DNA from: an uncultured virus (IMG/VR IMGVR_UViG_3300033463_000060)
Lineage: Duplodnaviria > Heunggongvirae > Uroviricota > Caudoviricetes
Length of the DNA: 29,404 bases
Virus record (IMG/VR): IMGVR_UViG_3300033463_000060
Strand: one strand, 5' to 3'
The position numbers were made by a program, and so were the translations under genes. The stretch's first letter is position 1, and each line of letters starts with the position of its first letter. The notes under the pieces are model-generated. The model saw only the letters and a list, made by a program, of their open reading frames with translations, was not told the DNA's origin and searched no databases. This document shows, piece by piece, positions 1-13,876 of this stretch.

Positions 1-1
1 G

Positions 2-1081
2 CGCACGAAGACGGACGACGGCACACGGGTGGAACAGTGCGTACACATGCTGAAAGAGGACCCGAAGGAGGGTTGGCGCCCCGTATGCCTGCCCTACGCC
101 GCCCTGCAGGAGGCGTTCAAGTTGCTGCCTGCCGCCCGTCGCTGCATGGTGACGCTGACGGAGAAGCAGGACGGCACGGTGCGCCAGATGCTCATCGACT
201 ATCAGGACGGCAAGCTGTCGTTGCCCTTCGAGCCCGCCGACGAGTTCCCCGAGCCGCCCGCCGTGGCTCAGGACGGCACGGAGGAGCACCAGTGCCGCTT
301 CCAGATGGCCGCTCAGGAGCTGATACCCGTGATGCGCCGCGCCAAGACCTGCACTGCCGACGATGAGTTGCGCCCCGTGATGAACTCGGTCTGTCTCGAT
401 TGCTTCATCGACAAGATGGTGGTGGTGGCTACGAATGGCCATGTGATGATGAAGTACGTGCTGGAGACCCCAGGCTACATGCAGCAGGTGGGCTTCCCCG
501 TCACCGCGAGCGCTTGTCTGCTCATTCCGAAGCAGGCCATGCCCAGCGTGGTGGCAGCCTTCTCCGGTGCCGACCGTCTGACCGTCAGTGCCGACACGCA
601 GCGCATCCAGCTCTCCACCGACGGCGTGACCTTGGTGACGCGCTGTATCGAGGGCCACTATCCTAACTACGAGAGCGTCATCCCCAAGGACAGCCCCTAC
701 CGTGTGCAGATGAGCCGCGACACGCTGAAGATGGCGCTGCGCCGCATCCAGTTGTCGGCCAGCTCGTCGTCAAACATGGCCACCTTCCGTGCCGATGCCG
801 GAGCCTTCGTCATCTCTGCCGAGGACTACGACTTCAGCCGCGAGGGCTCCGAGCGAGTGCCCGTGCAGCAGACCGACGCTTTCCTGCCCGACGGCTTCAC
901 TATCGGCATGAAGATCCAGAACACGCTCGAACTGCTCGACCTGCTGGACGAGGACAACATCTGCCTCTACTTCTCCGACCCCAGCCGCGCCTTCCTCTTG
1001 AAGAACGAGAGCCCGAAGGCGCAGAACGTCACCTTGCTGCAGATGCCGATGCTGGTGAATGGCGAGGGGGCGACGGAGTAG
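2..1081 (+). CDS. dnaN: DNA polymerase III beta subunit (sliding clamp), phage-encoded; 5' end outside window
   Basis: Beta-clamp motifs TADDELRPVMNSVCLD, VATNGH, EGHYPNYESVIP, IGMK..LLELL and LLQMPML. Frame is open from the window start. Confidence 0.88.
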   Translation, partial: RTKTDDGTRVEQCVHMLKEDPKEGWRPVCLPYAALQEAFKLLPAARRCMVTLTEKQDGTVRQMLIDYQDGKLSLPFEPADEFPEPPAVAQDGTEEHQCRFQMAAQELIPVMRRAKTCTADDELRPVMNSVCLDCFIDKMVVVATNGHVMMKYVLETPGYMQQVGFPVTASACLLIPKQAMPSVVAAFSGADRLTVSADTQRIQLSTDGVTLVTRCIEGHYPNYESVIPKDSPYRVQMSRDTLKMALRRIQLSASSSSNMATFRADAGAFVISAEDYDFSREGSERVPVQQTDAFLPDGFTIGMKIQNTLELLDLLDEDNICLYFSDPSRAFLLKNESPKAQNVTLLQMPMLVNGEGATE

Positions 1082-1152
1082 TGACACACGGGGACTGTCC
1101 CCTGTGTGAGAAGCGAAAGCGGATTGCATGGGGACTGTCCCCTGCGTGTCGC
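1081..1152. repeat. REP-like double palindrome (GGGGACTGTCCCCTG x2)
   Basis: cacacggggactgtcccctgtgtg ... gcatggggactgtcccctgcgtgtcgc begins on the dnaN stop codon. Confidence 0.8.
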
Positions 1153-1178
1153 ATCGGTCGAAAGAGCGAAATAAAGAA

Positions 1179-1209
1179 CGAACACGAATTTCACGAATTA
1201 AACGAATTA
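1179..1209 (+). repeat. Left 31-bp inverted repeat built of 9-mer (CACGAATT-like) units
   Basis: cgaacacgaatttcacgaattaaacgaatta; reverse complement matches 2458-2488 at 29/31. Confidence 0.9.
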
Positions 1210-1240
1210 TGACGATAATGACGAAAAAAGTGACGAATTG

Positions 1241-1272
1241 TTTGGTTGTATGGATAATTATGCTTATCTTTG
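1241..1272 (+). promoter_or_regulatory. Canonical Bacteroidetes primary-sigma promoter (-33 TTTG / -7 TAnnTTTG)
   Basis: TTTG at 1241-1244, 20-bp spacer, TATCTTTG at 1265-1272. Confidence 0.85.
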
Positions 1273-1276
1273 CAGC

Positions 1277-1329
1277 GTCAAATCAAATTAGCGACACGAA
1301 GTCGCTGCTCAACCGAGGCAGCGTTTTTT
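1277..1329 (+). terminator. C4-type target site 1 with overlapping antiterminator and intrinsic terminator
   Basis: Target gtcaaatcaaattagc (1277-1292). Hairpin AGCGAC-acgaa-GTCGCT (1290-1306) is mutually exclusive with CGCTGC...GCAGCG-TTTTTT (1303-1329). Confidence 0.75.
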
Positions 1330-1388
1330 GTGGCCATACATCGTTGGTAGAGAAAAGCGAACCCCTGCAAAGGGCGAACTATATTCTC

Positions 1389-1463
1389 GGCGGCAACCGC
1401 GTTGGGTACTGGAAACAGCCCAAGGTCTCAGCTAATTTGAACCTGACAGCGCGTAGTGCCGCC
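1389..1463 (+). ncRNA. C4/CI-like antisense RNA (cloverleaf)
   Basis: Closing stem ggcggca/tgccgcc; hairpin ttggg-ta-ctg-GAAA-cag-cccaa; hairpin with loop gctaatt; single-stranded tgacag. The segment gctaatttga...tgac is complementary to flanking gtca...aattagc sites. Confidence 0.75.
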
Positions 1464-1500
1464 GTTCTTTTATTGTCAAACGTCAAATCAGATTAGCAAA

Positions 1501-2460
1501 ATGGAACAGGACATTATTTACAACGAGGACTGCTTGCAGGGCTTGAAGCACCTGCCTGACAACAGCGTCGATTGCTGCATCACGTCGCCGCCTTATTACG
1601 CCCTGCGTGACTATGGTGTAGAGGGTCAGATTGGTTTGGAGGAAACTCCGCAGCAGTACATCGACCGACTGACCGAGGTATTCATGGAAGTGCATCGGGT
1701 ATTGAAGCCAGAGGGCACGCTGTGGATAAACATCGGCGATAGTTACAACGGCAACAAGAAGGGCAACACCGAGACGAACAAGAACAAAAAGGTCGCCGAG
1801 ACCAGCCACTTCGAGAAGAAACTTTGGAAGGAGTGTAAGCAGAAAGACCTAATCGGCATACCTTGGATGCTGGCGTTCTCGTTACGCAATGAGGGATGGT
1901 ATCTGCGGCAGGACATCATTTGGAACAAGCCGAATGTGATGCCTGAACCAGCCACCGACCGATGCGTCAAGGCTCACGAGTATATATTCCTGCTATCAAA
2001 GTCGGAGCGTTACTATTTCGACTACGAGCAAATCCAAGAGGAAGCGACAACGCATGAGAACCGCCCCGCTGGTGTCGTTTGCAATCGCAAGTTCGGCTAC
2101 GACAGCAAGCAGAACCAGCACCCCGAAGCCTATCTGATGTCGTCAGCCGACAAGACTGGCGAAGTGACCGAGGCAGATATGCCGACGGGCAAGCGAAACA
2201 AGCGCGACGTGTGGTCGGTCAATACGAAGCCCGACCTTAACGCTCACTTCGCAGTCTATCCCGAAGAACTCATTCGGCCTTGCATCCTCGCTGGTTGTCC
2301 GAAAGACGGCATCGTGCTCGACCCGTTCATGGGAAGCGGTACAACGGCTCGCGCCGCCCGTCGCTGGGGTCGGCATTACGTCGGCTTTGAACTCAATCCC
2401 GATTACGTCAAAATTATCGAGAGAAAAGTGCAAGTCGCCGTTGACCTCTTTGCAGAGTAA
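1501..2460 (+). CDS. Site-specific DNA methyltransferase (N4-cytosine/N6-adenine, beta class)
   Basis: IYNEDCL, ITSPPYY, WYLRQDIIWNKPN, HFAVYPEEL and VLDPFMGSGTT motifs. ATG at 1501. Confidence 0.92.
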   Translation: MEQDIIYNEDCLQGLKHLPDNSVDCCITSPPYYALRDYGVEGQIGLEETPQQYIDRLTEVFMEVHRVLKPEGTLWINIGDSYNGNKKGNTETNKNKKVAETSHFEKKLWKECKQKDLIGIPWMLAFSLRNEGWYLRQDIIWNKPNVMPEPATDRCVKAHEYIFLLSKSERYYFDYEQIQEEATTHENRPAGVVCNRKFGYDSKQNQHPEAYLMSSADKTGEVTEADMPTGKRNKRDVWSVNTKPDLNAHFAVYPEELIRPCILAGCPKDGIVLDPFMGSGTTARAARRWGRHYVGFELNPDYVKIIERKVQVAVDLFAE

Positions 2461-2488
2461 TTCGTTTAATTCGTGTAATTCGTGGTCG
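2458..2488 (-). repeat. Right 31-bp inverted repeat (partner of 1179-1209); supplies the MTase TAA stop
   Basis: taattcgtttaattcgtgtaattcgtggtcg. Confidence 0.9.
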
Positions 2489-2532
2489 AAAACAAATCCC
2501 CTCAATCCGTGTAATCCGTGTTAAGCTATCGC

Positions 2533-2600
2533 TTGACTTTGCTCACGCTCGGCATAACTGATGCAAGCATCGTCCTGCACTCGCTTAATCGCAAAGTTCG
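2533..2600. repeat. Dispersed miniature repeat element (…CTCGCTTAATCGCAAAGT family)
   Basis: Hairpin actttgc...gcaaagt. The core ctcgct(t/c)aatcg recurs near 4987-4999 and in reverse complement near 29349-29360. Confidence 0.6.
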
Positions 2601-2614
2601 ACAAAAACAACGAT

Positions 2615-3098
2615 ATGACAAAAGAACAATTACAAGAAAGGCAGCGTCAACATGCCCGACTTCCGCGAGTGGTGCGCCCTGCTCGAAAAGCACGGCTACC
2701 AGAACTTCCTCGCACCCCAGTTCCCCTACCCCTGGGGCAAGGACAAGCGCGACAAGAAGACCAAGCCTGGCATACTGAACTCGAAGCACTACGGCGTGGC
2801 CCAGAACCGCGAACGGGTCTATATGCTCTCCGTGCGCCGCGACATCCTCGGACCCTCTGAAAGAGTTGCGGGCGAATACTCACCCGCGACCCAGTACGAG
2901 TTCCCCCGACCCTTCGCCCTCGACACCTGCATTGCCGACGTGCTGGAGGACAACGTGGACGAGCGCTTCTTCCTGAAGCCCGACTCGGTCATCAAGTTCC
3001 TCACCGTCAACGAGGCCACCGACGGCAGCGACATTCACTATATGGTAACGGACCACAAACTGACGGATGAGGAAATCAGGGAGGCAAGGAAGGGATGA
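2615..3098 (+). pseudogene. C5-cytosine DNA methyltransferase relic (motif VIII plus start of variable region only)
   Basis: LNSKHYGVAQNRERVY and IADVLEDNVDERFFL are present in 2652..3098. No FxGxG, PC, ENV or motif IX/X. An upstream ATG at 2615 with a good leader is out of frame. Confidence 0.7.
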
Positions 3099-3152
3099 GT
3101 TTTTTACGAACACGAATTACACGAATTTTTCATTAACAAACAATTAGGCGAT

Positions 3153-3461
3153 ATGAACAACGAACAAGAGAAAAGGACTGCGCCGAAGTTCGACGCAAAG
3201 AAGAGTAGTAAGACGGGCGACGTGCTCGCCTCGTTGATAACCGGCACGATTGCGAAGACCCAACCGCAGTCGATAGCCGAGGGCTTGCTGATGATGACGC
3301 TGGCTATTGGCCGGACGTTGCAGGTGCTTGGCACGATTATGGGCTGCGACCCGAAAATCATGTGCAAGGACTTCTGTGCAAGTCTGACCAAGTATTTCGA
3401 GATGGGCGGTGACGGACGCATTGACGATATTGCAGCCGCTATGAAGCAAAAAGGTAGTTAA
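3153..3461 (+). CDS. Hypothetical protein
   Basis: 102-aa ORF with AT-rich leader ending ttaggcgatATG. Confidence 0.75.
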   Translation: MNNEQEKRTAPKFDAKKSSKTGDVLASLITGTIAKTQPQSIAEGLLMMTLAIGRTLQVLGTIMGCDPKIMCKDFCASLTKYFEMGGDGRIDDIAAAMKQKGS

Positions 3462-3482
3462 TCTATTAAACATTTAGGCGAT

Positions 3483-3983
3483 ATGAACAACAACATGAAG
3501 AATTATCCCTCACTCGAAAACTTAGAGGGTAAGACAGTGGACGAGCTGATTGCATTACGTCAGCAACTTCGTGAAGTGCGCGACAATCAGCGCGTGACGA
3601 TAGCCGAGGAGATTACGGCAAAACAAAACGAACTCCGACGCGAGAGTATTAACGAACGCCGCATCTTTGACATTCAACTGAACGAACTGAAACGCCAGTT
3701 GGAAGAGATAGGCGACAAGATGGGCGCACCTGCCATGAGAGTCAAGGCCGCAGAACTCCGCGATAAGATTAGCGAACTGAAGTACCAGTTCAACATCAAG
3801 GTTGCCGAGCGCGACCATCGTGAATGTGTCTATGCCAACGAGCGAGTACGTCGCCAGTCGCAAAGCCAGCTCGACTACGAGAACGCAGAGATTGAGGTCT
3901 GCAAGGCCATCCGCGACAAGGACGGATTCAGCCAGTTAGGTTTCAAACAGCGTAAAGACAATGGCGAAGAAGGTCAACAGTAA
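3483..3983 (+). CDS. Hypothetical coiled-coil protein
   Basis: 166-aa E/R/K/L-rich ORF with the same leader as 3153. Confidence 0.8.
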   Translation: MNNNMKNYPSLENLEGKTVDELIALRQQLREVRDNQRVTIAEEITAKQNELRRESINERRIFDIQLNELKRQLEEIGDKMGAPAMRVKAAELRDKISELKYQFNIKVAERDHRECVYANERVRRQSQSQLDYENAEIEVCKAIRDKDGFSQLGFKQRKDNGEEGQQ

Positions 3984-4200
3984 GGGTGTTCGCATCACCC
4001 GTGAACTACTGGCAAAGGCGCTGACGTGGCACTGCCCTCGCTACACCAAGCAGGGCGGCCACGGCGCACCGCCTCACGCTTGCGACAACTTCGACGGCAC
4101 CTACGACTGCTGCAAAGGTCCGTCGCAACTCTGCTCACAGGTATTCGACATCTTTCACACGATGGCAAAGATTCAGAACGGAGAAATAGACGTGATGTAA
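3961..4200 (+). CDS. Hypothetical Cys-rich protein
   Basis: 79 aa; overlaps the upstream stop as in an operon; several Cys/His residues. Confidence 0.65.
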   Translation: MAKKVNSKGVRITRELLAKALTWHCPRYTKQGGHGAPPHACDNFDGTYDCCKGPSQLCSQVFDIFHTMAKIQNGEIDVM

Positions 4201-4201
4201 T

Positions 4202-4369
4202 ATGGCTGACCTACGAGTGACTATTGCCGAGCGCGACCTCGGCGACTTCTACCGAATGTTGCGGGACTTTAGGCGAAATCGTGGCAACACGTTCGCCTAC
4301 CTGCAAATCGAACTTGAACAGCGATACCCCAAACTGAAAGAGAGATATGGAACTACACCTGAAGATTAA
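4202..4369 (+). CDS. Small hypothetical protein (55 aa, not in ORF track)
   Basis: ATG one base after the previous stop: MADLRVTIAERDLGDFYRMLRDFRRNRGNTFAYLQIELEQRYPKLKERYGTTPED*. It fills the gap between neighbouring genes. Confidence 0.65.
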   Translation: MADLRVTIAERDLGDFYRMLRDFRRNRGNTFAYLQIELEQRYPKLKERYGTTPED

Positions 4370-4715
4370 CGACGTGGTGGGCATGGACGACCAGAAACGC
4401 CACATCCTGCGTGTCGATGACGAAAGCCTGCGCACGGCACTCATGGAGCACCCAGGCTGGCTGTCGCAGAACGTCGTCAAGGAATGGCTCTTGAAGCACA
4501 ACACCCGACTGCTGAACGAAATCATCGAAGACCCGACGCTGCGCAACAACATCTACATGGACGAAAAGGCCAAGCGTGAAGCGAAGTCAGAACGTCGTGA
4601 GCGTCATCGTCAGTTCGAGATAGAGAAGCGTCGCCGTCAGGAACAGCATCAGGCATCCATTGCCACCCGTAAGGCTCTCGACTTCTACCGCGACATTCTC
4701 GGCATAGATGAATAA
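4347..4715 (+). CDS. Hypothetical protein
   Basis: 122-aa ORF with phage-like codon use. Confidence 0.75.
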   Translation: MELHLKINDVVGMDDQKRHILRVDDESLRTALMEHPGWLSQNVVKEWLLKHNTRLLNEIIEDPTLRNNIYMDEKAKREAKSERRERHRQFEIEKRRRQEQHQASIATRKALDFYRDILGIDE

Positions 4716-4763
4716 TCGTGTCGATTTATGCAGATTCGTGTCGATTCGTGTCGATTCGTGTTC
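4713..4763. repeat. 10-bp tandem repeat (GATTCGTGTC) starting at a stop codon
   Basis: taatcgtgtcgatttatgcagattcgtgtcgattcgtgtcgattcgtgttc. Confidence 0.8.
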
Positions 4764-4816
4764 TGTCCCCTGTACCACCCCATCACCCCCGATTTCGTAC
4801 CTTTGCCCCCGACACG

Positions 4817-4852
4817 ATGTCCGACCCTCTCGCGACAAAGTTCGTACCTTTG
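4817..4852 (+). promoter_or_regulatory. Phage-type promoter ATGTCCG-N21-TACCTTTG
   Basis: ATGTCCG at 4817-4823, TACCTTTG at 4845-4852. A second TACCTTTG at 4798 has a degenerate TGTACC at the same spacing. Confidence 0.7.
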
Positions 4853-5024
4853 CGATTGTCATCGCAGACCCTGCTCACGTTGCCTGCGGCGAGTTACGTC
4901 ACGACTCGGGATAGTCGATGCTGAGCATCACTCTCCGCTCGCTGCTCCGTAACTTCGACAATGTTCAAATGCGATTTGACATTGTTCTCGCTCAATCGCA
5001 GCGTTAGCAGTCGGAAAAACAAGA

Positions 5025-5089
5025 GTCACGTGACAATCTCGGAACTGTCACCGTGACAATCTCGGAAAAGTCACGTGACAATATCAGAA
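5025..5089. repeat. Three 22-23-bp tandem repeats with palindromic core GTCACGTGAC
   Basis: gtcacgtgacaatctcggaa / gtcaccgtgacaatctcggaa / gtcacgtgacaatatcagaa. Confidence 0.85.
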
Positions 5090-5154
5090 TAAGCTGGTGC
5101 GGCGCTTACACCGAAGTCCGCGAAAAAACAACAATAAAAAACAATTTTAGCATT

Positions 5155-5661
5155 ATGGCAGAATTGAAACTCAAAATCAAGAAACAGCTGATGAAGCGCA
5201 AGGTGGACGGCGCAACGCTCACGGGCTACATCGGCAAGGTAATTACCAACGGACGCAAGTCGTTCGACGAAATCGCCCGCGCCTCGGCCAAGAACACCAC
5301 GCTGCACCCCAAGGAGGCCTCGCTGGCCGCAGAGCTGCTGCTGGAGGGCGTCGCCGAGCAGTTGCAGCAGGGCTACATCGTGGACATGGGGCCGCTGGGC
5401 GTCATCACCCCCGCCGTGAACACCCCGTGGAAGCAGGATGCCGACGAGCTGCAGCTCAGCGAGATGCGCCCGAAGGTGAACTACAAAGCCTCGGACGGCG
5501 TGATGGCTGCCGTGAAGAGCGCCAGCCTGGCCTGGGCCACGCAGAATGACGAGCAGAACGGCACCGAGGCTCCCGCTGGCGACGACGACGTAACCACGCC
5601 CAACACCGAGAACCCCGGGCAGGGCGGCGACGGCGGCCAGGGCGACGGAGGCATCGAATGA
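5155..5661 (+). CDS. HU-related (histone-like) DNA-binding protein, Bacteroidetes type
   Basis: SFDEIAR..AKNTTLHPKE, QLQQGYIVDMGPLG, and a Gly/acidic tail (PGQGGDGGQGDGGIE). ATG at 5155 follows an A-rich leader. Confidence 0.8.
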   Translation: MAELKLKIKKQLMKRKVDGATLTGYIGKVITNGRKSFDEIARASAKNTTLHPKEASLAAELLLEGVAEQLQQGYIVDMGPLGVITPAVNTPWKQDADELQLSEMRPKVNYKASDGVMAAVKSASLAWATQNDEQNGTEAPAGDDDVTTPNTENPGQGGDGGQGDGGIE

Positions 5662-5693
5662 TGTCTGATGGCTGATGGCTGAAGGCTGAACGA

Positions 5694-5724
5694 GGAAGCC
5701 CCGCCCAGCGGTGGGGTTTCCTTT
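5694..5724 (+). terminator. Hairpin/terminator (REP-like)
   Basis: ggaagcccc-gcccagcggt-ggggtttcc-ttt, preceded by 7-mer repeats tgatgtc tgatggc tgatggc tgaaggc that begin at the HU stop codon. Confidence 0.6.
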
Positions 5725-5762
5725 CAAAAACAATTTTTTAGGCGATATTTTTTAAAGGCGAT

Positions 5763-6287
5763 ATGAAAATAACAAGACAATGGGCGATGCCCTCGATGCA
5801 CACGTTCACGATTGAACCGATACGGCAACTGATATGTCGGTACGTCAAGGACGGCAAGGGATGGATTGACCCCTTTGCTGGCGAGAACAGCCCAGCGGAG
5901 ATTACCAACGACCTCAATCCAGAGAAGCCTGCCAAGTACCACATGCACGCTCTCGACTTCGCAAAGATGCTCGACGGGCAATACGACGGCTGTCTGTTTG
6001 ACCCTCCGTATTCGCTGACACAGGTCAAGGAGTGCTATGCAAGCATCGGCTGTGAGGACTTCATGTCGCAGGACGCAAGCCATTTTCCTTACGACATCAA
6101 GCGCGAGATAGCCAAGCGTATTAAGCCCAACGGCATCGTCATCAGTTGCGGTTGGAATAGCGGCGGTTTCGGCAAGACGCTCGGCTTCGAGATGATAGAG
6201 ATACTGCTCGTTCCTCATGGCCGCACCCACAACGACACCATCGTGACGGTCGAGCGTAAAGTACCAACATTATTCGATAACGTATGA
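5763..6287 (+). CDS. Small adenine-specific DNA methyltransferase
   Basis: WIDPFAG (motif I), LFDPPYS (motif IV) and EILLVPHG..HNDTIVTVE. Confidence 0.85.
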   Translation: MKITRQWAMPSMHTFTIEPIRQLICRYVKDGKGWIDPFAGENSPAEITNDLNPEKPAKYHMHALDFAKMLDGQYDGCLFDPPYSLTQVKECYASIGCEDFMSQDASHFPYDIKREIAKRIKPNGIVISCGWNSGGFGKTLGFEMIEILLVPHGRTHNDTIVTVERKVPTLFDNV

Positions 6288-6493
6288 AAGAAATCGTAAT
6301 CACACTGGCCGACATCATCGGTTGGGCCATGTTCATAGGGCTGTGCGCCATCGTGCTCGCCCTCGTCATAGCCGCCGTTGGCTTCATGCTGTTCATCGCG
6401 TGGCAAATCGTCTGCGAAGTGTTCAGCATCGGCAAAGGCGAGACGTTCATCGTCACACCCAAACTGCCACCGCCACCACCTCCGAAGAAATAA
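6284..6493 (+). CDS. Small membrane protein
   Basis: ATGA overlap region with the upstream gene, long hydrophobic stretch and poly-Pro tail. Confidence 0.65.
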   Translation: MKEIVITLADIIGWAMFIGLCAIVLALVIAAVGFMLFIAWQIVCEVFSIGKGETFIVTPKLPPPPPPKK

Positions 6494-6538
6494 TCCGCTC
6501 AATCCGTGAAATTCGTGTTCAAACAATAAAACAACCCT

Positions 6539-7194
6539 ATGGCAAAAGACTGGAACGGCAACGCCGGCAGCATCTTCAAGACGCTCGGCGCATCGAACCA
6601 CACCGAGAACGAACGCCAGGCCGACGACTTCTACGCCACCGACCCCGTGGCCATCGACCTGCTGCTCGACTATCCCCACATCCACATGCCCCACGGCGTA
6701 TGGGAACCATCCTGCGGCAGCGGCTGTCTCAGCCAGCGACTGCGCCAGCGCGGCCACCACGTCGTATCAACCGACCTTGTGGATCGCGGCTACGGAGTGG
6801 GGGGGTAAACTTTTTCGAGCAACAGACGATGCCCGACCACTGCCAGGCCATCGTCACCAATCCCCCCTACAAGTTCGCCACCGAGTACGTCATCCACGCC
6901 CTCCGACTGCTGCCCACCGACGGACTGCTCGCCCTCTTCCTGAAGACCACCTTCGCCGAGGGCAAGGAACGCTACCAGCGCATCTTCGGAGTGACACCCC
7001 CCGCACTCATCCTGCAATGCTCCGAGCGAGTGCTCTGCGCCAAGAACGCCGAATTTGACAAGATGCGCCAGGCAGGCGGCTCCGCAGTCAGCTACGCATG
7101 GTGGGTGTGGCGCAAGGGCTGGCGTGGCGACACCCACCTCGACTGGATAAACCACCCCTCGGCGCAATATGCGAAACAGTTAGAATTGTTTTAA
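6539..7194 (+). CDS. N6-adenine DNA methyltransferase interrupted at a G7 tract (frameshifted/phase-variable)
   Basis: DFYATDP and WEPSCGSG lie in 6539..6808; IVTNPPY and YAWWVW lie in the -1 frame ending at 7194. G8 instead of G7 at 6799-6805 would fuse them as YGVGGVNFF. Confidence 0.85.
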
Positions 7195-7195
7195 A
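7109..7195 (+). repeat. 87-bp direct repeat, copy 1 (3' end of MTase)
   Basis: Matches 7741-7827 at 86/87. Confidence 0.95.
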
Positions 7196-7208
7196 TGAGC
7201 AGACGAAT

Positions 7209-7613
7209 ATGACTTACGACAATGCAATCATCATCAACGGCGAAGTGTACGTGCTCGACGATGGCTTCGACGAAAGCAACGACTGCGAAGGCTGTGCGCT
7301 GCGTGACAAATGCTGTGGCGGTTTTGATCTGATATGCTCCACGCTGTTCGACGCAGGGCAGGGCAAGCACTTCATCAAGGCCGACATGCCCGAACCCGTC
7401 TTCTGGCACAAGGGCGAGAACCCGCCCAGCGACGACCGCCCCGTGATAGGCTATTGGACCGACTACCCAGAAGAGGGATGGACTGAGCCGTTGTACTACA
7501 GCAACGGCGAGTGGTACAATGCCGACGAGAACGACTGGGCAAGTCAGCGAAAGGGTGGCCCCGACTTTTGGATAGACCGACCGCAGTACGATAAGGATGA
7601 ACACGAGGAGTAG
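7209..7613 (+). CDS. Hypothetical phage protein (CxxC N-terminal part; W-rich DUF551-like C-terminal part)
   Basis: ATG at 7209; DCEGCALRDKCC and WHKGENPPSDDRPV...FWIDRP. Confidence 0.7.
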   Translation: MTYDNAIIINGEVYVLDDGFDESNDCEGCALRDKCCGGFDLICSTLFDAGQGKHFIKADMPEPVFWHKGENPPSDDRPVIGYWTDYPEEGWTEPLYYSNGEWYNADENDWASQRKGGPDFWIDRPQYDKDEHEE

Positions 7614-7616
7614 TAA

Positions 7617-7727
7617 TGCCCCTTGGCGTAAGCCGCTTCCCCGATGGGCGGGGACGCTCGAATGTGAAATCCGTGGTCGTCATATTGCCCCTTGCATTAT
7701 AGCCGTCCCCCGATGGGCGGGGGACTC
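7617..7727. repeat. Two direct copies of a ~40-bp REP-like hairpin
   Basis: gccccttggcgtaagccgcttccccgatgggcgggga and gccccttgcattatagccgtcccccgatgggcggggga. Confidence 0.75.
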
Positions 7728-7740
7728 TAAAGGTGTGATA

Positions 7741-7827
7741 GGCGCAAGGGCTGGCGTGGCGACACCCACCTCGACTGGATTAACCACCCCTCGGCGCAAT
7801 ATGCGAAACAGTTAGAATTGTTTTAAA
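7741..7827 (+). repeat. 87-bp direct repeat, copy 2
   Basis: Duplicate of 7109-7195 with one a>t change. Confidence 0.95.
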
Positions 7828-7846
7828 CCCAAAAATAAAAAAGATT

Positions 7847-8410
7847 ATGGCAAATTTCAGTGGAACAATGAATCTCATGGGCTTCAAAGGAGCCAAAGTG
7901 TTTACCAATCTCGACCAGCAACGGCCCCAAATGGCCTGGGTCTGCATACCCGTGCCCTACAACGACATCCAACTGTCGCAGGACGGCAAGTATGCCAATG
8001 CCCGCGTGTTCATGGCCGAGACCAACGACAAGTTCAAACAGGCGTGCATACAGCGCAAGCAGCAGTCGGGCGACGACATGACCGGCTACATGCCACCCTC
8101 GCACCAGATGGAAGTGTCGTTCTCGCCCGAGTTCCGCCAGCGGGCACTCGAAGCCGCCCGTAAGCGACTGGTCAGCGAGCACCCCGAGTGGACCGGCGCC
8201 GACCTGGAAGACCCCGAGCACAACACCGACCTAAAGAACGCCATGTACGATGCCGTCCGCTGCCGACTGGGAAGCATGTACTGCCACCAGCGCCAGACCG
8301 TCAACGCCTCGCCCGCCAACACGGCGAATATCAGTCAGGCACAAGGAGCGCAGTCGTGGCAGGAGGGCGCACCATTCCCAGAGCAGGAAAGCGACGATTT
8401 GCCGTTTTAA
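7847..8410 (+). CDS. Putative single-stranded DNA-binding-like protein
   Basis: Q/A-rich linker and acidic C-terminus ESDDLPF, typical of SSB tails. Confidence 0.55.
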   Translation: MANFSGTMNLMGFKGAKVFTNLDQQRPQMAWVCIPVPYNDIQLSQDGKYANARVFMAETNDKFKQACIQRKQQSGDDMTGYMPPSHQMEVSFSPEFRQRALEAARKRLVSEHPEWTGADLEDPEHNTDLKNAMYDAVRCRLGSMYCHQRQTVNASPANTANISQAQGAQSWQEGAPFPEQESDDLPF

Positions 8411-8467
8411 GAGAAATTCACGCCGCCAACGAGCGGCATAAGTTTAACCAATAAAAACTGAAAGATT

Positions 8468-8803
8468 ATGGAAGTAACAGTAATCGACCTGCTGAAACAG
8501 ATGGCCGTCGCCATCCCCAGCATCATGGTGGGCACACAAGCCATCACCGCCGCCATTCACGGCGCCTTCAGAATCACCAACCAGAACGCAGTACATGCCC
8601 TGTCGTGGATCATCGCCACGCTCGCCGGACTCGGCTTCGTGGCCTTCAACGGCCTGGACTTCGGACTGCCCGAGGTGTGGAACTACATCATCGGTGGCGT
8701 ATGCGGTCTGATTGTCGGCGGTGCCGCCAACGGCGTGTACGACTGGCCTGCCGTGGCCAAGATTTTCGACGCCATCACCGCCCTGTTCGGATTGAAAAAG
8801 TAA
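8468..8803 (+). CDS. Holin-like membrane protein
   Basis: 111 aa, about 3 hydrophobic helices, GGAANGVYD motif and basic C-terminus. Confidence 0.6.
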   Translation: MEVTVIDLLKQMAVAIPSIMVGTQAITAAIHGAFRITNQNAVHALSWIIATLAGLGFVAFNGLDFGLPEVWNYIIGGVCGLIVGGAANGVYDWPAVAKIFDAITALFGLKK

Positions 8804-8909
8804 CTACTACGCGGGATTGATACCCCCGTCTTGATTACTTTAATCAGGAAACCGACAAGCCAAATCGGGGTTACGCCAAAGGCACCGTAAGGAACTGTCG
8901 GTTTTTCTT

Positions 8910-8945
8910 ATGTCCGTGAGTAAATGACGGAATGTGCTACCTTTG
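8910..8945 (+). promoter_or_regulatory. Phage-type promoter ATGTCCG-N21-TACCTTTG
   Basis: Lies just upstream of ATG 8972. Confidence 0.75.
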
Positions 8946-8971
8946 TCATCGAAACAACGAAATAACGAAAT

Positions 8972-9955
8972 ATGTTTGGAAAGAACGACACCCGCCACAT
9001 CGACCTCCACCTCCCGCAGTCGTGGAACCACTGCACCACCGACGAACTGGAAGCCATCGCCGCCGCCATCATTCAGGAACAGCAGCGCGTGGACCGCTAC
9101 CATCCCTTCGACTGGAGCAGGGTGAAACTGAACGTGGTGCTGGCCATCAACAACCTCACCCCCGACCCCTCTCCAAAGGGCGAGGGGAGTGAGGACCAGG
9201 GATGGTTGGTAAGGCGACCGCAGGACAAGGAGCCGTGGCCCATCTCAACAGGTCAGCTCGTAGCACTCACCGAACGGATTGCGTGGATCGACGACGAGAA
9301 GAGCGACAAGACGGTGTTTATGTTTCCGTACCCGGAACTACGTTTGGTTAATGGTTCATGGTTAAAGGTTAATGGTTCTGACGGCGGTAGCAAACTCTCC
9401 ACTCTACACTCTACACTCTCCACTATAATCGGTCCCGCTCCGCTTTTAGACGGTTACACGTGGCGCGAATACCGCTGGCTCACCGACTGGATGCAGGAGT
9501 ATATGCGGTGCGCCAATGCCTTGGCGCAAAGTAAGACGGAAGACGTAAGAAGGAAGAACCAAGCCGCCCTCGACACCGCCCGCAACGAGTTCTTAGCCGT
9601 GCTGTTTAAGCCTACCACATCAGCCCTCAGCCCTCAGCCATCAGACATCTTTGAGGACTTCTCCCCCGTGAAATGGCAGGTCATCCTCTTCTGGTGGTCC
9701 TCCCTCATGGCCCAGCTCGCCAAGAAGTTCCCCAAGGTCTTCAAGCCCCAGCCCGTCGGCAAGCACCGCCGTCCGCAGAAGGCCGACACGCCGTGGGATT
9801 TTTACAACCGCGTCACCGCCACCATCCAGAAGTACATCGGCGGCCTGTCCTCCTCCGATGTCGATAACCAGCCCTACGGCGTCACCCTGCAGCAGCTGGA
9901 GATGATGGCCGACGAAGCCGCCGAGTTAGAGAGAGCAAAGTCAAGGCATCCTTGA
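8972..9955 (+). CDS. Hypothetical virion/tail-assembly protein carrying several in-frame repeat insertions
   Basis: 327-aa ORF at the start of the tail module. Low-complexity peptides (TPDPSPKGEG, VNGSWLKVNGS, LSTLHSTLST, SALSPQPSDI) map to DNA repeats. Confidence 0.75.
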   Translation: MFGKNDTRHIDLHLPQSWNHCTTDELEAIAAAIIQEQQRVDRYHPFDWSRVKLNVVLAINNLTPDPSPKGEGSEDQGWLVRRPQDKEPWPISTGQLVALTERIAWIDDEKSDKTVFMFPYPELRLVNGSWLKVNGSDGGSKLSTLHSTLSTIIGPAPLLDGYTWREYRWLTDWMQEYMRCANALAQSKTEDVRRKNQAALDTARNEFLAVLFKPTTSALSPQPSDIFEDFSPVKWQVILFWWSSLMAQLAKKFPKVFKPQPVGKHRRPQKADTPWDFYNRVTATIQKYIGGLSSSDVDNQPYGVTLQQLEMMADEAAELERAKSRHP

Positions 9956-10032
9956 ACTTTGCCGAACGAGAGGCGGTTCGACGTTAAAGTCAAACTGCCG
10001 AAATGGAAAAGCTAAAGCACAAGAAACCGTAG

Positions 10033-10177
10033 AATTTGACGATTTGACGATTTCACGATTGGACGATTTCACGATTTGACGATTGGACGATTTGACGATT
10101 TCACGATTGGACGATTGGATGATTTGAAGATTGCCCGTAAATAGTAAAATAGTAAAATAGTAAAATAGTAAAATAAA
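10033..10177. repeat. Two adjacent 8-bp tandem arrays (GATTTGAC-like x12; AAATAGTA x4-5)
   Basis: Directly visible at 10033-10128 and 10138-10177. Confidence 0.9.
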
Positions 10178-10180
10178 ACT

Positions 10181-12973
10181 ATGCACAGCCATTTAGCAAT
10201 CATAGGAAAGAACGGCGAGCTGGCCCTGAAGCCAGACCAGTCTGTCAACATCACCGAGAAGAACCCCATGTTCAACGACGTGGAGATGTTCTCGCAGACG
10301 TTCCAGTTGCCGTTCGACAAGAACCGCCACCTGTTGAAGAATATGGAGGCCCGCGACAGCAACATGCGAGCTGTTGACGTGGAGGGCGAGCGTTTCCGCA
10401 TCGTCATGGACGGCATACCCGCCCGCACCGCTACGCTGAAGGTGCAGGATGATGTGGTGCTCAACGACTCGATAGACGTAAACCTCGATGCCACCAACCG
10501 CACCTTCAAGGATATGATTGCTGACATGAAATGCCGCAATGTGTCGGTAGATGATGACATCCTGATAGGCGAGAAGATAGGCGATGTGAACCTGCATGTG
10601 GAATATCAGACGGTGTGGCGACAGCGCATACAGGTGGATAGACAGTCACCTGGTGATCCTACCGACCCCTCAGAGCAGTGGACACACGAAATCGGAGTGA
10701 CGGAAATTACGGAGAAACCGAAGACTATTGACGGCACTTTCCAACCGCCAGTGCTCGGTTTCAGCTACCCAGCAAAATGTGTCACGCAGCGGGATGGTAT
10801 TCAGGCAGTGGCTAGCCCGAACTCGTTGACGATTGACGGCACGAATATCATTACACCTGTTGTTGATGAACTGTATATCAATACCAAGACACCCTACGGC
10901 TCGACCGACGAGAGCGGCAAGACGTGGCCGTTCTGTAACTCACGCATCTGCTATAGTCACCACGACAAGGAAAACGACGGCAATGGTAATTACGAGACGG
11001 CGGAGGCCTTGGTGCCCAATGGTGCTGCCACGCCCGACGATAAGCATAATTTCGGACCCTATTGGGTACTCGATGCCGATCGGCCTGCAAGCGGAATCTG
11101 CTTCTACGTGGGTTATTTCCTTGAAAGACTGTTCAAAGACCTTGGTATGGCCTATGACATGACAGCACTAAGCAATATAGACGACTTCAATTACCTGTGT
11201 TTCTTCACCACATCGTGCAAGAGCCGTGTGGAGAACACGTCGCTTCAACTGACAAGCGTCGAAGACATCAACAAATGGCTCTCGTCGCGTGGTTGTGGCG
11301 GGCAGTTGAGCATTGACTACAACAATTTAAATCAGGAGGTACTACTTAACACCATCGACCAGTCGAGCGACGACTATCATAAGTATCTCACGCTGTCAGC
11401 TGCCGAGGTGCAGTCGTGCGACAACGCAGTGACGTTGGAAAATGTACCCTTTAAGCCTTCGTATCATATTCAGATGGAAAACGGTGACGGCAGCGTAGGT
11501 CCGCTTGTTACATTAAGTCCATGGCCATGTATTTATGAAGGAATGACATATCATATTGACCGCACGTATAGTGTGTCGAGTGTCAATGCTCAGTCAGTAT
11601 CGGCATACGTTCAGAAGATGTATGCCACGAGCGACAACTTCCCCGATGCCAACGTCACAGAGATTATCGAGAGCCTGGAGAACTCGTTTGGTGTGCGCTT
11701 CTGCTACGATACCGAACAGAACAAGGTGACGGTGCGACTTTTGCGCGATATGTTCTGCGATCAGCAGCCGCCTATTCCTTTTAAGGGAAAGGTGCTGTCG
11801 ATGCGCAAGGTGTCTGAGAAAATCACAGGCATCAAGATGGGTTACGCTGCCGAGAGTGACGCTCAGGAGCAGCGCGACAACATCCGCTATCAAAAGAAGG
11901 ACTATGACACCACCTACGACTATATGGAATATCCGCAAGGCCGTACCATTCTGAAACCATACGCCGACGTGACGAAGCTGGTGGATATTGGCAACATGAA
12001 CTGCTATGTGGATTTGGCTACGGGCGATGCTTTCCGCATCAAGATAGACAGCGATGCCAAGACGGTGGCCGAGATGAAGCCGTCACTCTTCGAGGTGGGT
12101 GGACTGAAAGGTGTAGAGATGGGTGACTGCTCGAAGGAGAACGAAGACTACGTGAAGGAGTTTCGTTCAAGTTTTGAGCCGGTTATCTGTAACATCTTGA
12201 AGCGCGACCAGAGCGGTTCTATTCTGCTGGTGCCATTCATAGACGAGAATATGGAGCACGAACTGCTGCCGATGAAGGTGCAGAATGTGATGACAGTTGG
12301 TCGCAGCGAGTTGTATTTCAACTACGACCTGCAGCTGTTGGAAAACTACGACCCTACTAGCACCGATGACGGCCAGTCGCCGCTGATGTCGCATGAATGG
12401 GGACTGACGGTAGGCATACTGCGCCCTGGCGCAGGAACGGAAGCTCCATACGAATACGACGAAGGCTACGATGGCTTTGGAAATTCGCGCTGGGGTATTA
12501 CGTCGGAGGACTATGCCGTGACTGCAGACTCCTACGACGTGCGTGGACGGTTCATGGGCACGTCGCCAGCAGGTTCGTTCTCCCTGAAGCCATGCGCCTA
12601 CAAGCCGTTCCGATATAAGTACGTCGGCGGTCAGTTAATGATTTCAACCAACCAGAAGCAGTGGGAGTCGGAAGACGGGTGGCTCATTCCCTGTAACGAT
12701 GACGTGCGCAACAGCGACGGCACGATAGCATCGCGGATTCGTTCACGAGGTATGCGCGAAACCTTTATGATAGAGTTCTTCAGCTTCTTGCTCTATCGTC
12801 AGCGTTACGAGGTTAAGACACTCTGCACCGCCGCAGAGCTGATAGACATCCCGAACCACTGGCTGCGTCGCTGGGAGATAGACGGAAAAGTGGGTTTCAT
12901 CAATAAGACTGAGTATTCTGCCAACGTGGAGAAAGGTGTCGGCGAGGTTGTGATAGATTTTTATTCGATGTAG
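10181..12973 (+). CDS. Large minor tail/baseplate protein (putative)
   Basis: 930 aa; N-terminal EKNPMFND..FSQTFQLPF and NFPDANVTEIIESLENSFGVRF, as recalled from Bacteroidetes siphovirus tail proteins; tail-module context. Confidence 0.65.
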   Translation: MHSHLAIIGKNGELALKPDQSVNITEKNPMFNDVEMFSQTFQLPFDKNRHLLKNMEARDSNMRAVDVEGERFRIVMDGIPARTATLKVQDDVVLNDSIDVNLDATNRTFKDMIADMKCRNVSVDDDILIGEKIGDVNLHVEYQTVWRQRIQVDRQSPGDPTDPSEQWTHEIGVTEITEKPKTIDGTFQPPVLGFSYPAKCVTQRDGIQAVASPNSLTIDGTNIITPVVDELYINTKTPYGSTDESGKTWPFCNSRICYSHHDKENDGNGNYETAEALVPNGAATPDDKHNFGPYWVLDADRPASGICFYVGYFLERLFKDLGMAYDMTALSNIDDFNYLCFFTTSCKSRVENTSLQLTSVEDINKWLSSRGCGGQLSIDYNNLNQEVLLNTIDQSSDDYHKYLTLSAAEVQSCDNAVTLENVPFKPSYHIQMENGDGSVGPLVTLSPWPCIYEGMTYHIDRTYSVSSVNAQSVSAYVQKMYATSDNFPDANVTEIIESLENSFGVRFCYDTEQNKVTVRLLRDMFCDQQPPIPFKGKVLSMRKVSEKITGIKMGYAAESDAQEQRDNIRYQKKDYDTTYDYMEYPQGRTILKPYADVTKLVDIGNMNCYVDLATGDAFRIKIDSDAKTVAEMKPSLFEVGGLKGVEMGDCSKENEDYVKEFRSSFEPVICNILKRDQSGSILLVPFIDENMEHELLPMKVQNVMTVGRSELYFNYDLQLLENYDPTSTDDGQSPLMSHEWGLTVGILRPGAGTEAPYEYDEGYDGFGNSRWGITSEDYAVTADSYDVRGRFMGTSPAGSFSLKPCAYKPFRYKYVGGQLMISTNQKQWESEDGWLIPCNDDVRNSDGTIASRIRSRGMRETFMIEFFSFLLYRQRYEVKTLCTAAELIDIPNHWLRRWEIDGKVGFINKTEYSANVEKGVGEVVIDFYSM

Positions 12974-13005
12974 TTTGTTAGTTTGAAGTAAAAATCGTAC
13001 CTTTG
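12974..13005 (+). promoter_or_regulatory. Canonical host-type promoter of the moron
   Basis: TTTG at 12974-12977, N20, TACCTTTG at 12998-13005. Confidence 0.8.
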
Positions 13006-13033
13006 TCCTCGTAAACTTAAAACAATAAGCGAT

Positions 13034-13768
13034 ATGAGGACAAAGGTATTTTTATTTTATGCACTATTGGTTGCCATTATGTCGGTAGGATGTGAAAAGG
13101 ACGAAGACCAGACAGACAAAGAAACTACCGCCACTTTGACAGGCTGGTGGGATGTGGAAAAGGTAAAGGCAGGCGACTTGTGGTACGATCCTCCTACATC
13201 CGACGCAACATATATGCTCTTTACCGATGATAATATTTTCCAGACTGGCAACGAAAGCGGCATGGTGTATTTGAGAAAAGATGATGTAGTAGAGTGCTGT
13301 AACATTAAAAACTATTCTACTGTTCTGTATAGAATCAATATCACAAGTCTTACGTCATCGCAACTTACGGCATCGGTCTATAACGTGAAGAGTGGTACAA
13401 CCAGGGAGTATCTGATGCAAAGAAATGCCGACAAAGCGCTATTTGCCCGTTCGCCGAAAACCTATCTGCAGGGAGAGTGGAAGGCCAGCGATGCAAAATT
13501 CTCAAAGATTGTCTTTGACGACCAGTATGCTACATTCTTCTTTGACGGGGAGGATGCTCACAAGGAAATGTTTTTCTATTACAGAAACAAGTACTCCCCG
13601 CAGACCATCAGTATCAGTCTTTTCCCAGAATCCGAGGATAGGAATGTTATTGGTTATGACTTGTATTATAGAATACTTATAGAAAGTGTTAGTCCAGTCA
13701 ATAGTCCGAACACATTTAGAATTAACGACTACAAGAACTCTAAAACATATACTTGTGTAAAGCAGTAA
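13034..13768 (+). CDS. Lipoprotein moron (lipocalin-like; possible superinfection exclusion)
   Basis: Signal peptide II with lipobox SVG-C followed by acidic EKDED; LTGWW and LQGEW lipocalin-like starts; AT-rich; own promoter. Confidence 0.75.
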   Translation: MRTKVFLFYALLVAIMSVGCEKDEDQTDKETTATLTGWWDVEKVKAGDLWYDPPTSDATYMLFTDDNIFQTGNESGMVYLRKDDVVECCNIKNYSTVLYRINITSLTSSQLTASVYNVKSGTTREYLMQRNADKALFARSPKTYLQGEWKASDAKFSKIVFDDQYATFFFDGEDAHKEMFFYYRNKYSPQTISISLFPESEDRNVIGYDLYYRILIESVSPVNSPNTFRINDYKNSKTYTCVKQ

Positions 13769-13816
13769 GTGTCTCATAACAGATTCGTCAAGCAGGCGGG
13801 CATCAGCGGAAACGCA

Positions 13817-13851
13817 ATGTCCGTCTGTTTTTTTGCTTTGCCGTAATTTTG
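13817..13851 (+). promoter_or_regulatory. Phage-type promoter ATGTCCG-N20-TAATTTTG
   Basis: Upstream of ATG 13877. Confidence 0.75.
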
Positions 13852-13876
13852 CTTGCAGAAACAAACAAGCAGAATT

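Follow-up and report, generated by a model that had tools for sequence, protein, structure and literature searches.

Tandem 9-mer arms around a methyltransferase unit, candidate module boundaries in the variable region of an uncultured cattle-gut phage group

The uncultured Caudoviricetes virus IMGVR_UViG_3300033463_000060 (IMG/VR) is represented by a stretch of 29,404 nucleotides, hereafter the window, in which all called genes (27 called proteins) are on the + strand. Between the sliding-clamp gene (29–1081) and the structural genes lies a 6.7-kb stretch in which a promoter-like site, a small RNA and a DNA methyltransferase gene are enclosed by two oppositely oriented short tandem arrays, referred to here as arms. 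The original prediction, made from the sequence alone, had described this unit as a non-autonomous gene cassette bounded by 31-bp inverted repeats of 9-mer units. A repeat search of the window bore out the inverted repeat: positions 1179–1209 and 2458–2488 are 94% complementary over 31 nt (29/31), with 1248 nt between them. The predicted contents agree with the pattern, Rfam and Pfam matches, and the TAA stop codon of the methyltransferase (2458–2460) is indeed formed by the first three bases of the right arm. As had also been claimed, no transposase or recombinase was recognised inside the unit with Pfam, PHROGs and NCBIfam, and the same searches recovered no invertase or recombinase among the 27 called proteins of the window.

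The building block of the arms is the 9-mer ACGAATTNN, that is, ACGAATT recurring with a 9-nt period. The window contains 10 copies of this heptamer where 3.37 would be expected, and none of 100 shuffles contains as many; the two-unit pattern ACGRATTNNACGRATT (up to one mismatch) occurs 8 times against 0.01 expected. Forward copies are located at 1184–1208 and 3112–3127, reversed copies at 2459–2483, 2504–2519 and 6492–6516, and a reversed variant array with a 10-nt period at 4734–4759. The left arm (1175–1239, + strand) begins with GAAC and continues with three exact ACGAATTNN units at 1184–1208, the degenerate units ACGATAA and ACGAAAA, and a further ACGAATT at 1233–1239. The right arm (− strand) is composed of an inner part (2458–2488), with three reversed ACGAATT units and GGTCG, and an outer part (2495–2522) of reversed ACGGATT units, which together make up a double arm: an outer ACGGATT array, a T-rich linker, GACC and an inner ACGAATT array. 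Seen on the window strand (inner ACGAATT array, A-rich linker, outer ACGGATT array), it mirrors the double arm found 5′ of genes in other phages as well as the arms of hairpin elements in Bacteroidaceae.

Further arms had been predicted at 2495–2522, 3106–3127, 4713–4763 and 6492–6520, also at gene boundaries, and all are present. A forward arm of two units (3100–3127, +) lies 25 nt 5′ of the ATG of the gene at 3153–3461. A reversed arm (6492–6520, −) overlaps the stop codon of the open reading frame (ORF) at 6284–6493 and is located 5′ of a frameshifted phrog_799 methyltransferase gene, while the arm at 4716–4763 (−) proved to be a variant with the unit ACGAATC and a 10-nt period, reversed, which begins directly after the stop codon of the gene at 4347–4715. 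According to the locus maps, every arm of the window adjoins a gene boundary. No target-site duplication was found outside the methyltransferase unit; the flanking bases (…GAACGAAC before ACGAATT and GGTCGAAAAC after AATTCGT) belong to the inverted repeat itself. No Rfam family covered the arms of the window, and 11 bacterial hairpin loci compared with Rfam gave chance miRNA-level matches only.

The cargo gene (1501–2460, +) encodes an N6/N4 DNA methyltransferase of 319 aa (PF01555, 9e-55; phrog_67, 1.5e-80). Upstream of it, between the arms, a promoter-like site of the Bacteroidetes type, TTTG-N20-TAtcTTTG, was found by pattern match at 1241–1272 (+). The general pattern TTTG-N20-TAnnTTTG, which we take to be the Bacteroidetes promoter consensus, occurs twice in the window against 0.26 expected, and 5 of 100 shuffles reach 2; both full matches lie outside the arm sequences, which themselves contain none. 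The promoter-like site is followed by a leader (1283–1329, +) with a terminator-like hairpin and T-run at 1303–1329, and by a c4-2 RNA (RF02944; 1388–1466, +), which scored 41.7 bits against a gathering score of 41 (E 6.7e-06), a small margin. The large loop of the c4-2 RNA (GCUAAUUUGA, 1431–1440) is complementary to TCAAATTAGC at 1283–1292, at the start of the leader (predicted −22.1 kcal/mol), and, with one G·U pair, to TCAGATTAGC at 1487–1496 (+), a second site that ends 4 nt 5′ of the methyltransferase ATG (predicted duplex −16.8 kcal/mol). The modelled pairing near the ATG fits c4-like antisense control of methyltransferase translation. Pairing of the same loop with the arms was considered and set aside, since by eye it amounts to 6 bp including a wobble pair and the loop matches 1283–1292 and 1487–1496 instead.

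The sole close relative found is the phage record G001 (locus L007), whose clamp gene is 91% identical; by CheckV estimate, G001 and a further phage record, G002, are 56% and 42% complete. Synteny with G001 holds on both sides of the region of interest (window 1–1061 corresponds to G001 279–1339, and window 7825 onward to G001 14011 onward). The variable region between these blocks spans 1082–7824 in the window and 1340–14010 in G001, and the 12.7 kb of the latter is almost wholly different. Shared sequence between the two variable regions is limited to one methyltransferase, a weak match to a C5-methyltransferase, the arrays and a short repeat, and all arrays of the window and of G001 lie within these regions. 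Among the cultured phages of INPHARED, window positions 1–8000 matched only distant methyltransferases, and the right-arm region 2440–2530 had no match with the BLAST low-complexity filter on.

The repeat is not peculiar to these two genomes. An exact triple unit was found in 119 IMG/VR stretches representing 118 distinct contexts, where we estimate the chance expectation for the 21-base triple pattern to be well below 1. Across the phage contexts the 7-mers are exact and the 2-nt spacers vary freely. Contigs from bovine-gut runs of 10 studies contain the window stretch, and the hosts of the phage group are probably Prevotellaceae or other Bacteroidales. Coding strands were assigned from codon usage by means of a model built on 138 long ORFs from array loci, which identified the right frame in 315/343 self-check windows. 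From 137 distinct arrays with enough flanking sequence, we removed 27 that lay within an open frame or in a locus with GC ≤0.38, leaving 110. In 93 of the 110 (~85%) the array is co-oriented with the downstream gene and in 17 it is not; a looser 6-mer core gave 89 co-oriented and 18 reversed arrays. Of the 93 co-oriented arrays, 28 have the next ORF-opening ATG no more than 2 nt away and another 40 have it at 3–30 nt, whereas among 12 reversed arrays counted on the locus maps, 9 overlap or directly adjoin the stop codon of the gene before them. The idea that arms serve as paired cassette ends does not hold for most phage copies, which are single and co-oriented. Where phage arms are paired, their spacers are unmatched, with 8 of 20 spacer bases complementary (40%) as against 45% in shuffled partners. 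A gene-less hairpin was also seen in one phage contig (L092, 3538–3600), in which a forward ACGAATT array is followed at once by degenerate reversed units. In six other IMG/VR loci (L020, L038, L049, L069, L107, L119) a tandem TAAGATG array, a GC hairpin and a T-run are located directly 5′ of the ACGAATT array, with a different downstream gene in each.

A check suggested by the original prediction was to look for different cargo between the same arms, and such cargo was found. The arrangement of arm, gene and reversed arm encloses a phrog_11619 methyltransferase in G001, a radical-SAM gene (phrog_9298, 1e-99) in both G001 and L032, a 63-aa ORF in L032, two tandem methyltransferases in L287, and in L039 a three-gene block, the first gene of which encodes a 224-aa homologue of the phrog_799 methyltransferase of the window (judged by its start). 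L287 contains the closest relative of the cargo gene (88% nucleotide identity), with the same right arm on the stop codon; between its arms there is also a second methyltransferase, and the promoter and the c4-2 RNA are unmatched. In L292 the same two methyltransferases follow a forward arm but there is no right arm, which is likewise absent from L288–L291. The arms thus do not enclose a fixed unit, since the cargo of L287 differs and five other relatives lack the right arm. Relatives that keep the methyltransferase without the repeats and show neither empty sites nor swapped cargo had been named as evidence against a cassette: these five do lack the right arm, but different cargo between like arms exists. 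The same gene families occur with and without arms. More distant methyltransferase relatives in IMG/VR (L002–L006, 50–73% amino acid identity) have no arrays and are too distant to be read as empty sites.

Arrays also coincide with mosaic junctions. When the 60 nt on either side of 115 triple arrays were clustered, 17 upstream clusters had at least two members, and in 12 of these the array leads into two or more different downstream sequences. Viewed from the other side, 7 of 14 downstream clusters are preceded by at least two different upstream sequences. Arrays lying next to each other probably account for one of the upstream clusters, which would then be an artefact. No empty site with unique flanks, in which two arms would be adjacent, was found in the phage locus maps or in the contigs of the sequencing runs, which are assembled, so that minority orientations and rare forms are invisible in them; uncovered parts of the stretch in these contig sets were not used as evidence. 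Mapping of excision and inversion junctions, as had been proposed, returned only joints from 1208 to 2458/2459 in contigs of four runs. These were rejected as excision products: the matching side is at most 26 nt, the array alone, with 12–25 other letters between. They are free hairpin copies elsewhere in the communities and not empty sites of this phage.

We consider the odds about even that the arms serve as portable boundaries between modules, with accessory genes being exchanged there by recombination. The two 31-nt arms are oppositely oriented copies of a portable intergenic block, composed of a T-rich linker, GAMC and 2–5 tandem ACGAATTNN 9-mers, sometimes with an outer ACGGATT array in front. 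Such blocks punctuate the variable early region of a large cattle-gut phage group and are the same repeat as that of bacterial hairpins. The promoter, c4-2 RNA and methyltransferase would then be one module among many, assembled via exchanges ending at arms. Exchange would come about as the short conserved arms recombine, either in co-infected cells or with copies carried by the host, as has been proposed for the promoter-early stem-loops (PeSLs) discussed below, the enzyme not being supplied by the unit itself. Of the gene-cassette shuffling originally suggested, this account would retain the varied cargo, the lack of an inner enzyme, the mosaic junctions and the gene-less forms with adjacent arms (in bacteria and in one phage contig), but neither a fixed unit nor paired ends.

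Several points weigh against this account. We infer the recombination step, no event having been seen directly, and comparison is limited to one close relative. Gene boundaries, which the arms abut, are where mosaic junctions of phages tend to fall in any case; since the arrays abut gene starts, the mosaic test cannot tell an array junction from a gene-boundary junction. Exact 7-mers with free spacers are more in keeping with recognition by a factor than with mere homology. Recombination between inverted arms yields inversion and not exchange, which leaves the reversed arms at stop codons unexplained. The argument that different cargo occupies the same slot is weak as well: the radical-SAM unit of G001 is followed by the same 54-nt segment that lies 3′ of the right arm, but this segment is itself a dispersed repeat, present in several contigs in both orientations. 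A possible trace of earlier cargo is equally uncertain. Directly 3′ of the left arm, the nine bases ATGACGATA (1209–1217, +) match the first three codons of the radical-SAM gene that comes after the same arm in G001 at 8 of 9 positions (L007 8315–8323), within a segment of 94.7% identity (window 1180–1217, L007 8286–8323). From its letters, this could be a leftover of earlier radical-SAM cargo, or it may be just a degenerate repeat unit; both are equally readable.

Several known systems resemble the arms in part. The PeSLs of T4-type phages are short intergenic motifs in hyperplastic regions that flank non-essential genes differing between close relatives, and shuffling by recombination between copies has been proposed for them; each is about 100 bp and comprises a sigma-70-like promoter and a terminator stem-loop, with direct repeats able to give mini-circles (Arbiol et al., 2010; PMC2839356). 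The ACGAATT motif is likewise concentrated in a hyperplastic region and flanks genes that differ between close relatives. Unlike PeSLs, its arms are tandem 9-mers with no recognisable promoter and no excess of terminator stem-loops, a minority of them are reversed on stop codons, and the same repeat is found in bacterial chromosomes of many phyla. PeSLs are also said to have been treated by Comeau and colleagues in 2014 as mobile regulatory cassettes of T4-type phages.

The SAS and ESAS motifs of Cluster K mycobacteriophages are found directly 5′ of the start codons of a subset of genes, nearly always in one orientation; ESAS adds 17-bp inverted repeats, and from genome to genome either motif goes with particular gene families (Pope et al., 2011; PMC3203893). 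ACGAATT arrays are similarly located directly 5′ of start codons and mostly in one orientation, but they are tandem, and with them the same gene families occur both with and without arms. The SAS of Pope and colleagues (2011) is reportedly a single 13-bp site. The GGGNATC heptamer repeats of Xanthomonas and Nostoc are abundant intergenic tandem repeats near ORF starts and stops, as are the ACGAATT arrays, but they are G-rich, quadruplex-forming and of 7 nt (Rehm et al., 2015; PMC4692102), whereas ACGAATT has a 9-nt period and no G tracts. Transposons and miniature inverted-repeat transposable elements differ in that no target-site duplication flanks the unit and paired phage arms are unmatched (8/20 spacer bases against 0.45 in shuffles). 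No description of ACGAATT arms was found in a literature search whose scope was the papers apart from their supplements. We believe it to be new that the same arms recur throughout the variable region of a large group of phages, mostly as single arrays close to start codons, and that phage arms bracket methyltransferase and radical-SAM genes and coincide with mosaic junctions.

Variable regions of phages are the site of turnover of anti-defence genes such as methyltransferases, and what steers this turnover has been established in very few groups of phages. An easily recognised 9-mer array that marks module boundaries in more than 100 uncultured cattle-gut phage sequences would offer a searchable handle on gene exchange among rumen phages. 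Judged by sequence identity, the array is the same as the hairpin arms of bacteria from many phyla, and could tie phage mosaicism to a bacterial repeat and a nuclease-gene family. If the link to the nuclease were true, it would represent a new kind of mobile-DNA mechanism.

The triple unit was found in at least 122 stretches of bacterial genomes. Among the matches listed, 80 have titles, of which 48 are Bacteroidota, including 22 Prevotella/Prevotellaceae, and the other 32 belong to Chloroflexota, Acidobacteriota, Planctomycetota, Nitrospinota and others. Where bacterial arrays neighbour each other, 35 pairs are convergent and a single one is divergent, the gap being mostly 5–30 nt, and so they form hairpins. 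Counts of the two-unit pattern in five genomes were 19, 49, 442, 52 and 94, while a reversed-pattern control gave 0 in all five. The arms of bacterial hairpins are matched, with 55 of 100 spacer bases complementary against 40% in shuffled partners, a value reached by none of 1000 shuffles. ACGAATT arms also bracket genes of the GxxExxY family (TIGR04256, 1.8e-37 in L207; also L148, L260, L261 and L317). In 10 genomes, 20 of 36 GxxExxY genes have a 7-mer repeated upstream and inverted downstream, compared with 4 of 36 in a direct-orientation control. Many ACGAATT arm pairs in a Bacteroidaceae genome (G004, L275–L284) surround a conserved core of ~60 nt (gggagagccttggcggctcttgggaaaccatccggacggggctttcgcc…), which can point either way, and further arrays are nested outside; by sequence, such a layout is reminiscent of a miniature element or of a small RNA that has a processing stem.

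These hairpins raise the alternative that the arms belong to a selfish cassette mobilised in trans, being cut or recognised by a host nuclease specific for sequence or structure, with the PD-(D/E)XK-fold GxxExxY proteins as candidates. Units of arm, cargo and arm, together with gene-less hairpins, would then be moved or copied whole, and phages would gain cargo in this way. The convergent orientation of the bacterial arrays, their copy numbers over the control, their matched spacers and the presence of ACGAATT arms around GxxExxY genes all favour such a cassette. The GxxExxY hairpin cassettes (TIGR04256) consist of inverted 7-mer arrays with 2-nt spacers and can have the identical ACGAATT unit and double-arm layout, with a forward array at the ATG and a reversed array after the stop (L261, L207), and gene-less hairpin copies of them exist. 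In the window, the right arm gives the TAA, and the left arm is followed by the ATG-like possible remnant and only then by the promoter. The cargo also differs, being a PF01555 methyltransferase with its own promoter and c4-2 RNA, and the phage copies are mostly single and co-oriented. A comparable layout is known from REPIN/RAYT, in which dispersed inverted doublets form hairpins and a ‘master’ gene is flanked in bacteria (Bertels and Rainey, 2011; PMC3116915). The ACGAATT arms, too, form dispersed inverted hairpins with a flanked gene in bacteria, but that gene has a PD-(D/E)XK fold and is not a Y1 transposase, and the arms are tandem arrays.

Against mobilisation by such a nuclease, no GxxExxY protein was found among the 27 called proteins of the window or in the phage records G001 and G002, nor in 8868 ORF pieces from the window and the viral loci L001–L131 and L286 searched with a hidden Markov model built here. 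The phage arm pairs are not spacer-matched, and no target-site duplication flanks the unit of the window. The units of GxxExxY cassettes vary widely, differing from copy to copy even within one genome, so that ACGAATT is one class among them, and in five Prevotella-type genomes ACGRATT arrays are present on both sides in only 1 of 20 GxxExxY cassettes. To our knowledge no activity is known for GxxExxY proteins, and among the papers listed by a literature search none concerns the family, judged by title and abstract opening. On balance we consider a trans-mobilised cassette unlikely. A bolder form of the idea is similarly doubtful. In it, the ACGAATT arms would be the functional ends of a so far undescribed cassette system common to bacteria and phages, a small host nuclease (candidate GxxExxY) would recognise or cut arrays and hairpins and so let arm-flanked genes be copied or exchanged, and phages would use the system to capture and swap anti-restriction genes (methyltransferases, radical-SAM).

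Alternatively, the array could act in cis as an expression signal of the next gene, either as the binding site of a DNA- or RNA-binding protein or as an unstructured A/U-rich leader. Forward and reversed copies in one transcript might also pair around a cistron, so that the start codon is occluded or RNase III cleaves the stem, in the manner of 23S rRNA intervening sequences. In ORF-bearing examples of these, e.g., in Coxiella, a small gene is located inside pairing inverted repeats (PMC4990558). The prevailing co-orientation of the arrays, their proximity to the next ATG and the exact 7-mers with free spacers are all consistent with a regulatory element. The predicted RNA duplex between the two arms reaches −38.6 kcal/mol, and its stem would enclose exactly one cistron since the reversed arm overlaps the stop codon. 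In an RNA library, contig depth is raised at the arrays (bins 1069–1335 and 2404–2670), for which carry-over of DNA or other organisms could also account.

Regulation in cis is nevertheless rather improbable in our estimation. The phage unit lies outside rRNA, and its left arm is 5′ of the unit’s own promoter, so that the methyltransferase’s own transcript would be without the left arm. Gene families that have the array in some loci are without it in others, spacer covariation is absent in the phage pairs, and hundreds of gene-less hairpins with the same arms are found in distant bacterial phyla. An intrinsic terminator before every forward arm was ruled out, as a T-run lies within 20 nt 5′ of only about one third of the arrays (31/93) and upstream folding equals the control (−7.17 and −7.51 kcal/mol), and the arms have no promoter pattern. 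The three accounts weighed so far (module boundary, nuclease element and cis-regulation) are not mutually exclusive.

Inversion had been offered as an option in the original prediction. An invertible segment, in which a site-specific recombinase would flip the 1.3-kb unit for phase variation, is suggested by the inverted repeats around a promoter-bearing segment, but it is highly improbable: no recombinase is encoded among the 27 called proteins, no inverted allele was found, the cargo being co-directional with its neighbours in all 7 viral arm pairs (in assembled contigs, which cannot reveal a minority orientation), and inversion could not switch the methyltransferase because the promoter is inside the unit.

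The 6.7-kb stretch contains four methyltransferase genes or fragments (1501–2460, 2652–3098, 5763–6287 and, frameshifted, 6539–7194). The one at 2652–3098 (+) is a fragment of a C5 cytosine methyltransferase that covers only profile positions 138–231 of 324, and is located between the reversed right arm and the next forward arm. Directly outside the right arm is a second dispersed intergenic module (2526–2598, +), which recurs in other array-bearing phage contigs in either orientation, with 84–85% identity in G001, L087 and L036 and as partial copies in L038, L049 and L075. Contig depth is highest in the bin that holds this module.

The phrog_799 methyltransferase gene (6539–7194) is frameshifted at a G7 run (6799–6805), and contigs of two other runs have an extra G at 6798 that would restore its frame. 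G8 runs are also present in the first methyltransferase gene of L287 and of L292; the G7 frameshift could be an assembly error or reflect a slippage-prone tract. A 96-nt direct repeat, 95% identical (7100–7195 and 7732–7827), places copies of the 3′-end of this methyltransferase on either side of the gene at 7098–7613, and resembles a scar left when a segment was inserted or replaced. The interval from the clamp gene to the left arm contains two copies (1085–1108 and about 1126–1146) of a GC-rich palindrome around GGGGACTGTCCCC. At 5021–5089, 5′ of the HU-HIG gene (5155–5661), three tandem repeats of 22–24 nt each contain the palindrome GTCACGTGAC and, by their sequence, look like operators. 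A second start-associated leader, TTAGGCGATATG, occurs at 3138–3155, 3468–3485, 5734–5748 and 5750–5764, and also precedes genes in L007, L292 and L066, while many related loci use (t)ataaggaactATG instead.

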